A stretch of DNA of 37,921 nt from a virus. Where the stretch lies: the UHGV virus genome UHGV-0081762. One strand, given 5' to 3'. The number at the start of each line of letters is the position of its first letter. Position 1 is the stretch's first letter. Below are positions 6,857 to 10,657 of this stretch, one piece after another. The notes under the pieces are model-generated. The model worked only from the letters and a program-made list of their open reading frames with translations, did no database searches and was not told where the DNA came from. The position numbers were made by a program, and so were the translations under genes.

Positions 6857-7345
6857 TTATTTGATAAGAAGTGAAGGTTTCCCAACTTTGAGTTGAGCAC
6901 CGGGGATATTTATTCCTGCTTTTAGTTGGTGTTTGATTGCCAACTTGTCGGCTTTAATTGTCGTTTCAAACTCAACGTATTCAGGAGGAAGGGCGCTTGA
7001 GTCGATGATTTCTACAGTTTCTGACGGTTTGCGGATTGTTACCTGGTGAATACCTGCTCTAATCTTTTTCTTGCCAACCATTTCAAGCGATGACGCTATA
7101 TACGCCATAATGCTATCAATCTTATTTTGAATTACTGCTGCTCGTTCATTTAGTGACTTTGCCTCTTCCTTGAGGCGTTCAGCATAACCAGATTCATTTT
7201 TAATAATGGCGAGAAGTTGCTCTATTTTATCGGTAAATTCTCCTTCCATGCCTTCTATTGTGTCAGCAATCATCTCTGGCTCTAAATCTGAATCCATCAA
7301 TTTTGCGTATTCATTGGCTATTTCATATAGTTTGCTCACTGGCAA
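6857..7345 (-). CDS. Siphovirus Gp157-like protein (recombination-associated)
   Basis: 162-aa ORF immediately downstream of recT; resembles Gp157 family as recalled. Confidence 0.45.
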   Translation of the reverse strand: MPVSKLYEIANEYAKLMDSDLEPEMIADTIEGMEGEFTDKIEQLLAIIKNESGYAERLKEEAKSLNERAAVIQNKIDSIMAYIASSLEMVGKKKIRAGIHQVTIRKPSETVEIIDSSALPPEYVEFETTIKADKLAIKHQLKAGINIPGAQLKVGKPSLLIK

Positions 7346-8225
7346 CCTCCAGTTTCGCTTTGCATTCTATGTAAATGGCTTGTACGTTCTGCTGCAATTT
7401 CATTCCAGATGTCAGGCGATATGCTTCTGCAAAATATCGCTTCAAATCATCCATGTTTTCTGCCTGAGCCATTTCATCACAAAGAAGTTGTGCTTTATCC
7501 ATTATTTCCTGCTGGCGTTTCCGTTCATCTTCGCGGATATCTTCCTCTGATTTGTGCGGCATAACTGGCTCCTGATGCATACCTTCATCTTCGTTAAGCA
7601 GGTGAATGGCATTATCCAGTCGCTGGGCTTTAGGCCAGTATTTGCTGGCGCGTTTAACTATTGTTTTACGTGCCATCTCTTCCCAGAATGTTTTCCACGG
7701 TCCATTCTTTGCCTTGCTCGTTGCTTCCACAGCTTTAATTTCTGCCAGACTCATTTCTTCAGTCAGGTAGTCACCATCTGCTGTTTTAACCGTGCAATAA
7801 CCACCAACAATAGAGCCTCGCTCACCAAATGCGTTGTATTTGTGGGTTGGTGCTGAATCAAGGCCATTTGATTCATAGGTGTCGTTTGAGTACACCAGTT
7901 TGCATTGCCCCCACTTAATTGAACCTGTCGATTGCGCAAGGTGAAGTAATCCCATGTAACTGATATCAAGGCACACCATGCCGTCGCGAGGAACCAGATA
8001 AGCCAGTTTGCTGGCCGGGTTTAAGGTGATGCCGATCGCCGCAACATTGATGATAGCGTTCTGTGCGCTGGTTGGATTTGCCAGTGCCGTTTTAGCCAGG
8101 TAATCATTTTTCTGGAAATACTGAATTGCAAACTGGCTTTCCTTAGCCCATGTCACCGTCTGTTCAGTCAATGCTCCGCAGAATAACTGCTCCTGCTGTT
8201 TAACGAATTCAACGATATTGCTCAT
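7323..8225 (-). CDS. recT: RecT-family single-strand annealing recombinase
   Basis: 300-aa ORF; position equivalent to bet/erf in early-left operon; sequence recalled as RecT-like. Confidence 0.75.
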   Translation of the reverse strand: MSNIVEFVKQQEQLFCGALTEQTVTWAKESQFAIQYFQKNDYLAKTALANPTSAQNAIINVAAIGITLNPASKLAYLVPRDGMVCLDISYMGLLHLAQSTGSIKWGQCKLVYSNDTYESNGLDSAPTHKYNAFGERGSIVGGYCTVKTADGDYLTEEMSLAEIKAVEATSKAKNGPWKTFWEEMARKTIVKRASKYWPKAQRLDNAIHLLNEDEGMHQEPVMPHKSEEDIREDERKRQQEIMDKAQLLCDEMAQAENMDDLKRYFAEAYRLTSGMKLQQNVQAIYIECKAKLEVASEQTI

Positions 8226-8533
8226 GCTGCTTCTCCAAAAATGTGTCTGCGTTTGAATATTGCGAAGGCATATTCAGCCTTAACTCTTTTGGTTATTGCA
8301 TCCCAGAACCATTTAGCGGCTTCTTCCTGATAGTCACAGTCATCATCTTCCAGCCAGTCGATAGCGTCCTTAGTGTGTTCATCTGGTTTATATGAGCGAA
8401 GCATTTCGCTTATTGGGTCGCAACGTTTGCAGAGGCGATCAACTTCACTGTTGATTCGTTCGTAATCTTCATCAGTAAAACTTGCGATTATTTGCGATAT
8501 TTCACGCTTATCATTCAGAGTCAGAATCATCAT
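8222..8533 (-). CDS. Hypothetical acidic protein upstream of recT (Abc/anti-nuclease position)
   Basis: 103-aa ORF with acidic tract DWLEDDDCDYQEE; translationally coupled to recT. Confidence 0.45.
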   Translation of the reverse strand: MMILTLNDKREISQIIASFTDEDYERINSEVDRLCKRCDPISEMLRSYKPDEHTKDAIDWLEDDDCDYQEEAAKWFWDAITKRVKAEYAFAIFKRRHIFGEAA

Positions 8534-8614
8534 CTTTCTCCTGTTCTTTGTGCTGATTGAGCATTTTGTTCATCTGACGAATGAATTCTTCGTCTGACCA
8601 GTTATCTGTAAAAC

Positions 8615-8767
8615 TCATTTCCTGCGATACCACGGAAGGTTGATAGCTGATTTCATCGCTTTATTTGCTTCAAGCCACATTTTGGAATCACCAATAAATC
8701 TGGCTATTACTGCTTTGTTCTGTGCAGCACGAAGCATCTGGTGATTGATGGCTATTTCATTGCGCAT
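8615..8767 (-). CDS. kil: Kil-like host cell-division inhibitor (50 aa)
   Basis: Hand-translated MRNEIAINHQMLRAAQNKAVIARFIGDSKMWLEANKAMKSAINLPWYRRK; FIGDxKM core resembles lambda Kil; sits next to cIII. Confidence 0.45.
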   Translation of the reverse strand: MRNEIAINHQMLRAAQNKAVIARFIGDSKMWLEANKAMKSAINLPWYRRK

Positions 8768-8883
8768 AATAAGACCTCAACTCTTTTCCATCTGTCACGT
8801 AATTTACGGGTGATTCGTTCAAGTAAAGATTCATTTAGTTGGAAGACACCCATGCGAGCGCCTCCCGCGATTGCGTAAATCAT
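8752..8883 (-). CDS. cIII: CIII-like FtsH(HflB) protease inhibitor (43 aa)
   Basis: Hand-translated MIYAIAGGARMGVFQLNESLLERITRKLRDRWKRVEVLLCAMK; core ESLLERITRKLRDxWKR matches lambda CIII. Confidence 0.75.
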   Translation of the reverse strand: MIYAIAGGARMGVFQLNESLLERITRKLRDRWKRVEVLLCAMK

Positions 8884-9554: not shown

Positions 9555-9944
9555 TTAGTCAGCGAAGGTTAAGACGAGAATTACCTTAATGATGTCTGCT
9601 ACAACAGACACGGCCATAGATAAACCAAAGACAATCCAAGCCATAGAGATGTCTTCACTACCATCGTATAGAGTTCCGTAATCACTGGTGTAAGGCGTAA
9701 ATGTCGCGCCTTGATACAATAGGTATAAGCTTGATCCATAGAGAATAAATGCAGATATCCCTTGTATTGCCATGATCACCAGAATCATGAAACGAGCTGA
9801 TCTATGCGCCCAAGCCTGGCTTATTTTTTCTGATAGAGATTTCGCAATAAAAGCATGCGCTAAGCCGTAAATTGTCGAGATTGCCAACATCCCAAAAAAG
9901 CTTGCTATAGCGGTTCCAACCATAAGCGCCCCTTGCGTGATCAA
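9555..9944 (-). CDS. Small integral membrane protein (about 4 TM segments) co-transcribed downstream of cI (rex/sie position)
   Basis: 129-aa ORF, ATGA overlap with cI stop; hydrophobic segments. Confidence 0.6.
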   Translation of the reverse strand: MITQGALMVGTAIASFFGMLAISTIYGLAHAFIAKSLSEKISQAWAHRSARFMILVIMAIQGISAFILYGSSLYLLYQGATFTPYTSDYGTLYDGSEDISMAWIVFGLSMAVSVVADIIKVILVLTFAD

Positions 9945-10657
9945 ACCAGCCTTAGTTTTGTCTCAATTGCAACGCCTATAATCTTGCAGTTTCCATTGAT
10001 TGGCACGAGAGGCCATGCAGGGTTAAGTCCCTTGAGGTATTTATTTCCGCCGTCGATTATCAGCTTCTTGAATGTTGCTTCGTTAGAGTCAGAAAGTTTT
10101 GCTATGACCAAGCTGCCGTTGATCGCCTCCCTTCCGGTATCGAAAAGAACGAATGTTCCCTCTGGAATGCTTAACCCAACCGGTGCCGTCATTGAATCAC
10201 CTTCCACTTTAAGCCAAAACGCATTACCTTGAATATGCGCGTCAGACTCAAGCCAAACATCTATGTCTTTAATGGTGTATGGTTCGCATGCTTCACACCA
10301 CGAGCCAGCCTGGATACTGCTTAACACCGGATACCTCTTTCCTGCTCTGTATTCCCCTGCATACCTTACGTTGGCATCGCTCTTAAGGCTTTCTGCCTGT
10401 TCTGCAACCTTGGCAGCAATTGACTGGCTAAAATCAGCAATTGAGACTTGCAACAATCGTGCAAAACCAGATGCAACCTCAACGTTTAGCGCATTTCTGC
10501 CATTAAGATAATGCCCTACCGCTCCTTGGGTGATACCCAGTTCATCAGCGATTGAGTATTGGGTTATTCCCAATTCTTTCTTTTTTGACTCATACAAAGC
10601 CTTAAGCCGCTTAGCGTCTTCCAGCTGTTCTGTCGTCAGTGATTTTTTATTTTCCAT
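9941..10657 (-). CDS. cI: CI-type repressor (HTH plus S24 LexA-like peptidase domain)
   Basis: 238 aa; N-terminus TTEQLEDAKRLKALYESKKKELGITQ closely resembles lambda CI; C-terminal FWLKVEGDSMTAP and FKKL motifs. Confidence 0.9.
   Translation of the reverse strand: MENKKSLTTEQLEDAKRLKALYESKKKELGITQYSIADELGITQGAVGHYLNGRNALNVEVASGFARLLQVSIADFSQSIAAKVAEQAESLKSDANVRYAGEYRAGKRYPVLSSIQAGSWCEACEPYTIKDIDVWLESDAHIQGNAFWLKVEGDSMTAPVGLSIPEGTFVLFDTGREAINGSLVIAKLSDSNEATFKKLIIDGGNKYLKGLNPAWPLVPINGNCKIIGVAIETKLRLV

Follow-up and report, generated by a model that had tools for sequence, protein, structure and literature searches.

RecBCD is a central hub of the conflict between phages and bacteria, and the defences OLD, retrons and Gabija sense its inhibition. 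In phage lambda the inhibitor gene gam stands in the order kil-gam-bet-exo. The latest survey of lambdoid recombination modules recognises four anti-RecBCD types, Gam, GamL, Abc2 and MuGam (PMC12315714). Here we describe X, the working name for an open reading frame (ORF) at 8222..8533 on the minus strand of UHGV virus genome UHGV-0081762, a stretch of 37,921 nucleotides that we call the window. We consider it reasonably probable, from a modelled structure and from comparison with the known systems, that X is a highly diverged protein of the lambda Gam fold and an inhibitor of RecBCD. It would then be a third sequence type beside lambda Gam and phi80 GamL.

The described systems differ in how they act. 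Lambda Gam (PF06064; PDB 2UUZ, and 5MBV for its complex with RecBCD) uses acidic side chains to imitate the phosphates of duplex DNA, and its N-terminal helix plugs the RecB channel for single-stranded DNA (PMC5218532). GamL of phi80 and Lula (PF28165; 93 amino acids, isoelectric point (pI) 4.7) is a 'gam-like host nuclease inhibitor' that is toxic without Mog, and it is accepted as a Gam-fold protein (PMC12315714). P22 Abc2 (PF11043) hijacks RecBCD via RecC rather than blocking a DNA site (PMC9836394, PMC12315714). Mu Gam and Sipho_Gp157 (162 amino acids here) bind DNA ends in a Ku-like manner, and do not act by enzyme-binding DNA mimicry.

Predicted fold and family of X

The first-pass annotation had described an acidic ORF upstream of and overlapping recT without giving its strand. 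The overlap and the acidic tract are both confirmed, on the minus strand. X has 103 residues from its first ATG and 102 from a second ATG at 8530, and the second is the likelier start because the homologues and the family consensus begin MxLT. The protein has a pI of 4.73, with 24 Asp or Glu residues against 16 Lys or Arg. This is close to GamS (98 residues, pI 4.99, against 102 and 4.7 for X), and similar to GamL in both size and pI.

AlphaFold2 predicts an all-helical X with a mean predicted local distance difference test score (pLDDT) of 83 from five sequences and 91.7 from an alignment of 36, where all five models exceed 90. Helices are predicted at residues 6-17, 21-35, 40-47, 54-64 and 66-102. 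In two independent models lambda GamS is the best PDB match to this fold. It is the single top match in both structure searches, with by far the best combination of root-mean-square deviation and coverage, and the predicted structure is a helical monomer like that in 2UUZ. Gam is also the sole protein predicted by the gene position; therefore, the protein expected from position is the best structural match in the PDB. Ocr, gp5.9 and Abc2 show no similarity to X in the fold searches. A structure prediction was one of the checks that the first-pass annotation had proposed, and the modelled fold resembles a known inhibitor.

The acidic tract DWLEDDDCDYQEE (residues 59-71, 8 of 13 acidic) runs in the model from the end of helix 4 through a DDD turn into the long C-terminal helix. 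Among 36 family members D65, D67 and E70 are acidic in 67-83%, and Q69 is kept in 32. The tract aligns locally to Gam AFDDDVEFQER. By hhalign, X residues 53-77 (HTKDAIDWLEDDDCDYQEEAAKWFW) match Gam ASKNAISKAFDDDVEFQERAAEFIR, and in the family profile the motif TKDAIDWLEDDDCDYQEEAAKWF aligns to Gam SKNAISKAFDDDVEFQERAAEF (P 0.0015 in each case). The paired motifs read DDDCDYQEEAA in X and DDDVEFQERAA in Gam, or DDDxx[YF]Q[ED]xAA. The motif scores 22.1, against a mean of 11.1 (standard deviation 2.1, maximum 17.6) for 200 column-shuffled controls. In the X model it forms a helix, the DDD turn and a long helix; in the GamS crystal structure it lies at the H3-H4 junction. What links X with Gam in the models is the whole predicted fold together with a helix-DDD-helix motif, not simply an acidic tract.

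The two proteins differ elsewhere. The conserved N-terminal residues of Gam (Y4, W15, Y19 and others) are absent from X, and the model breaks the N-terminal helix of X at residues 18-20. GamL retains the MNAYL..DRIE N-terminus of Gam and X does not. As modelled, the broken helix may or may not serve as a plug for the RecB channel. The C-terminal helix of X is the longer, and X has no long N-terminal extension like that of the 138-residue isoform of lambda Gam.

X is a genuine conserved gene. It matches PHROG 3486, where no function is assigned, at E 5e-58, while Pfam, NCBIfam and PDB sequence searches with X and with the family profile gave nothing meaningful, and no Pfam or NCBIfam model covers it. 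A profile search of 1.84 billion representative proteins returned 54 clusters, nearly all of about 100 residues. The 36 full-length members that we aligned are 25%-93% identical to X and keep its length, its helix pattern and many of its acidic positions. They average 102 residues, with a median pI of 4.64 (range 4.37-5.45) and a mean net charge of -8.9, and 14 positions are acidic in at least 60% of them. It occurs in 268 of 5,426 complete E. coli genomes (about 5%), in every case under the label "hypothetical protein". Close relatives of X give a ratio of nonsynonymous to synonymous substitution rates (dN/dS) of about 0.23. Sister sequences of X are thus under purifying selection, and the substitutions are too few to say more.

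Other features of the protein were seen in passing. A zinc site formed by the CxxC at residues 36-39 with H53 and C66 was considered and rejected, because C36 and C39 are not conserved across the family. Compared with Gally, HK140 and SEN22, the X of the window carries four clustered charge-changing substitutions, N67D, K71E, E74K and E82K, where the long C-terminal helix begins. They raise its dN/dS against relatives to 0.5-1.2, with too few changes to call selection. E. coli P0027 (69 residues) joins a near relative of the N-terminus of the small ORF upstream of X to the C-terminal half of X; the fusion point is a shared DDD repeat (GATGATGA), and the protein looks like a deletion product. 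E. coli P0022 has residues 1-48 of X followed by an unrelated C-terminus.

Gene position, module exchange and Chi content

We gathered 14 genomic contexts of X by exact-protein look-ups, the window and 13 others, at 25-96% identity. Every one of them has X at the head of the recombination module, after cIII or kil wherever the upstream sequence is long enough. This is the position of gam: in the early-left operon, after cIII and kil and directly upstream of the recombination genes. What comes next varies. RecT and then Gp157 follow X in the window, HK140, Gally, an Enterobacter prophage and locus L022, and an unannotated protein of 281 residues and then Gp157 in L010-L012. RecT and then a YqaJ exonuclease follow in ENT47670, Midgardsormr38 and L014. 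A RecE-like DUF3799 exonuclease precedes RecT in L013 and L021, and in SEN22 this exonuclease is followed by an uncharacterised protein of 189 residues. In L019 and L020 a short contig ends after RecT or DUF3799. X therefore occurs both with and without Gp157, and it goes with recombination modules in general, not with RecT specifically.

Two of these modules hold a gene of note in the position of an annealing protein. The 189-residue protein of SEN22 (L004, 4630-5199) stands after the RecE-like exonuclease, and the 281-residue protein (metagenome locus L010, 4318-5163) stands between X and Gp157. Neither has a Pfam or NCBIfam match. Both could be unrecognised types of annealase.

The variety of modules speaks against X as a cofactor dedicated to RecT and in favour of a host-directed function. 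X could instead be an accessory factor of the phage recombinase, either like P22 Arf or as a loader or modulator of RecT, with no host nuclease as its target. The tight ATGA coupling of X to recT would fit this, as would the place of recT one or two genes after X in most contexts and the presence of arf directly upstream of erf in P22. We think it quite improbable. A separate Arf-like ORF already lies upstream of X in the window, and similar small ORFs do so in SEN22, ENT47670 and an Enterobacter prophage. In several lineages a RecE-like exonuclease directly follows X, and no RecT was detected in SEN22. The cofactor idea also does not predict a Gam-like fold, and it is at odds with an exchange seen in phage Dewey.

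In Dewey, recT and gp157 are 85% and 96% identical to those of the window. Directly upstream of recT, where the window has X, this phage has a true Gam (PF06064, E 1.5e-50). The two genes are thus interchangeable upstream of recT-gp157. In phi80 the order is gamL-rec-exo, with a rec of the RecT type, and the RecT of the window is 57% identical to phi80 Rec. X shares with gamL the place directly upstream of a RecT-type (SAP-4) annealase gene, and ENT47670 and Midgardsormr38 copy the phi80 layout, a RecT-type annealase and then an exonuclease, with X in the GamL position. Upstream of gamL, phi80 has the modifier gene Mog/agt, whereas X phages have a small Arf-like or Kil-like ORF. By tblastn, neither the window nor the other X-bearing loci examined encode Gam, GamL or Abc2.

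P22 Abc2, Abc1 and Arf are similarly small, and they too belong to an early-left recombination module and handle RecBCD for a phage recombinase. They show no sequence similarity to X. The first-pass annotation had placed the P22 abc genes upstream of erf; the actual order from pL is c3-kil-arf-erf-abc1-abc2, so that abc1 and abc2 lie downstream, and X has neither the sequence nor the position of Abc2. Arf (about 47 residues, with an FSDEEFI-type N-terminus, after kil) is matched by a different ORF of the window, the 35-residue one at 8511-8618.

Lambdoid phages with a RecBCD inhibitor avoid Chi, with observed/expected ratios of 0-0.3, while phages with a recombinase but no inhibitor have an excess of Chi, at about 2.5 (PMC3784561, PMC12315714). 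SEN22, ENT47670 and Midgardsormr38 carry X without Gam, GamL, Abc2 or Gp157. A trinucleotide model predicts 8.2 Chi sites for the three together, and none is present (Poisson P about 3e-4). The count covers SEN22 and ENT47670 in full and 50,000 of the 50,485 bases of Midgardsormr38, and it takes Cronobacter and Erwinia to use an unchanged Chi sequence. The window (1-37921) has no Chi site (GCTGGTGG) on either strand, against 2.0 expected, which makes 0 against 10 for the four. The P22 control gave 0 against 1.9. In Chi content, phages with X alone behave like inhibitor-bearing phages.

The likeness to lambda's gam slot drawn in the first-pass annotation was right, and Gam occupies that slot in Dewey. 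Its suggestion of an acidic host-nuclease inhibitor there also gains support from the predicted Gam fold, the Dewey exchange, the phi80 gamL layout, the mutual exclusivity of X with Gam, GamL and Abc2 in the loci examined and the absence of Chi.

Several results weigh against this reading. The overall sequence similarity of X to Gam is not significant: hhalign of the X family gives a probability of 17% with Gam, from a local match of 25 columns, and 4% (3.9%) with GamL. A global hhalign against a combined Gam and GamL alignment gives P 0.04, also not significant. None of the 36 family members matches Pfam Gam (PF06064) at E <= 1, and a search of PDB sequences with the X family profile did not find Gam, so that X does not join Gam by a family model. 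Foldseek of the X model against the PDB did not find Gam either. Only three or four genomes carry the Chi argument, and they could contain unrecognised inhibitors. Finally, the presence of X beside the MuGam-like Gp157 in the window and its closest relatives looks redundant.

Some of these points have a counterweight. Even GamL, which has been studied experimentally, reaches only E 0.085 against the Pfam Gam model, so the missing Pfam match is weak evidence against homology. GamL, which shows no detectable sequence relation to X, also sets the example of a Gam-fold inhibitor too diverged in sequence for the family models. Paired inhibitors have precedents as well, in the Gam and Gp157 of Dewey and in the GamL and MuGam of HK639 (PMC12315714). 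The insignificant global comparison and the empty Foldseek search would both follow if the resemblance to Gam were coincidental and X were some other small, helical early protein, perhaps a regulator or a moron, that lies beside recT by chance. That is very improbable in our view. Gam, which the structure matches, is also what one would expect beforehand from the place of the gene. That place does not vary across the 14 contexts, at identities down to 25%, and the motif scores above every shuffle.

The presence of Gp157 bears on a further alternative. X could be a DNA mimic or Gam-fold protein with another host target, such as SbcCD, a restriction or defence nuclease or an SMC-type complex, or it could modulate RecBCD in the manner of Abc2, while Gp157 handles end protection. 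A MuGam-like Gp157 next to X leaves room for a different job in the window, and the N-terminal helix of X is unlike that of Gam. The four charge swaps hint at an evolving interface. Phage DNA mimics are also known to have more than one target: T7 gp5.9 targets both RecBCD and MukBEF (PMC7617805), and Gam is reported to affect SbcCD (PMC5218532). We nevertheless judge such a retasked X unlikely. The same-slot exchange with Gam and GamL and the avoidance of Chi in X-only phages point specifically to RecBCD, and the fold searches show no similarity to Ocr, gp5.9 or Abc2.

The recombination module of the window

The window is an almost complete P22-like or lambdoid prophage, with an integrase at its left end and a tailspike near its right end. 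In the region of X its nearest relatives are HK140, mEpX1, Kapi1, Gally and Louie. Table 1 lists the features around X, with gene orders here and elsewhere read along the leftward early transcript.

Table 1. Coordinates of X and of neighbouring features in the window
Feature	Position	Strand	Remarks
cI	9941-10657	-	
cIII	8752..8883	-	PF02061, E 9e-15; upstream landmark, beside the recombination module in every lambdoid context examined
kil	8615..8767	-	PF06301, E 1.7e-20; landmark upstream of the module
Arf-like ORF, 35 residues, acidic (MSFTDNWSDEEFIRQM...; full MSFTDNWSDEEFIRQMNKMLNQHKEQEKDDDSDSE)	8511..8618	-	PHROG 17766, 2123; weak match to Arf PHROG 2445
X	8222..8533	-	Candidate RecBCD inhibitor; predicted lambda-Gam-like, all-helical fold
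Acidic tract of X, DWLEDDDCDYQEE	8321..8359	-	Residues 59-71
ATGA stop/start overlap of X and recT	8222..8225	-	
recT, single-strand annealing protein	7323..8225	-	PF03837, E 2.5e-33; PHROG 148
Sipho_Gp157, "Mu Gam-like end protection"	6857..7345	-	PF05565, E 1e-36; PHROG 253; weak Phage_Mu_Gam, E 0.008
D5-like regulator, 104 residues	6531-6845	-	Assigned by PHROGs

The TGA stop of X (8222-8224) overlaps the ATG of recT (8225-8223) by 4 nucleotides, an arrangement indicating translational coupling of the two genes. The GGAG Shine-Dalgarno sequence of recT lies within the final Gly-Glu codons of X (8233-8238). At 8225-8240 the E-[AV]-A-stop that is conserved at the C-terminus of the family falls on the Shine-Dalgarno sequence and the start codon of the next, coupled gene. 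What is conserved here is probably the nucleotide sequence, constrained as the recT ribosome-binding site, rather than a feature of protein function.

Between kil and X, the 35-residue ORF overlaps the start of X by 23 nucleotides. Its first 16 residues are identical to those of HK75 Gp33 (56 residues), and it shares the FSDEEFI-type motif of P22 Arf. According to a 2026 preprint, HK75 Gp33 can by itself set off the P2 OLD defence; the preprint proposes it as a new RecBCD inhibitor or manipulator. We considered Gp33 as a homologue of X and rejected it; it is related to the small upstream ORF instead. The module of the window may thus hold three RecBCD-related genes.

The recT of the window is of the SAP-4 type of Zheng et al. 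2025. Gp157, two genes downstream of X in the same module, is the only anti-RecBCD candidate previously recognised in modules of the HK140 type, whose anti-RecBCD function has been credited to MuGam/Gp157 (PMC12315714). RecT and Gp157 (6857-8225) come without an exonuclease gene, while distant X-bearing modules have a YqaJ or RecE-like exonuclease. The HK140 module is classed as SAP-4 + MuGam without a nuclease, which agrees with that of the window (PMC12315714).

Three further observations concern neighbouring genes. Gally GALLYPH_26 (L002, 1754-2068) is the counterpart of the 104-residue gene downstream of gp157 and is annotated 'Anti-RecBCD protein 1, similar to P22 Abc1'. The 104-residue protein shows no BLASTP similarity to P22 Abc1. 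In an Enterobacter adelaidei prophage (L009) an Abc1 homologue, 51% identical, follows gp157, and abc2 was not detected in this 8.3-kb locus. An ORF of 129 residues with several hydrophobic segments (9555-9944, minus strand) follows cI directly on its strand, where lambda has rexAB, and corresponds to the hypothetical gp48 of HK140. It may be an exclusion or moron gene expressed in the lysogen.

Proposed action and significance

By analogy with Gam, X would act as follows. Its transcription from pL would be early, with X heading the recombination module (kil, the arf-like ORF, X, recT, gp157), and it would be made in step with RecT through translational coupling. The acidic, helical and probably dimeric protein would then bind the DNA-end-binding site of RecBCD, as a DNA mimic and a steric plug. 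With RecBCD blocked, linear or rolling-circle phage DNA would escape degradation and RecT would have the DNA ends to itself, and RecT-mediated recombination and concatemer formation could proceed. The data show the gene, its conservation, acidity and position, its replacement by Gam in a sister module and a predicted fold like that of Gam; what we infer from the comparison is a common origin of the two proteins, dimerisation of X, and its binding and inhibition of RecBCD.

A variant of this scheme would keep the Gam fold and change its use. X might be retargeted or re-tuned, either modulating RecBCD while evading guards such as P2 OLD, retron Ec48 or Gabija-type sensing, or blocking another nuclease or defence complex of the host while Gp157 protects the ends. 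An arms race over RecBCD would then show in the break of the N-terminal helix, in the regular company of an Arf/Gp33-like peptide whose relative in HK75 triggers OLD, and in the clustered charge swaps of the window's X. We regard this variant as decidedly unlikely.

The X family is not named in our literature sources, and the 2025 survey omits it from the anti-RecBCD types (PMC12315714). That survey scored HK140-type modules as MuGam-only and counted 43 of 246 module-bearing genomes as having no anti-RecBCD gene (PMC12315714). The mechanism proposed for X would not be surprising; its relevance is to annotation and to the defences that guard RecBCD. If the reading is correct, it would give a function to a "hypothetical protein" of about one in twenty complete E. 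coli genomes, and a new small RecBCD inhibitor for work on recombineering, cell-free expression and quinolone potentiation. A third Gam-fold lineage would also fill the anti-RecBCD gap in SEN22, ENT47670 and Midgardsormr38, and would explain why these phages lack Chi.

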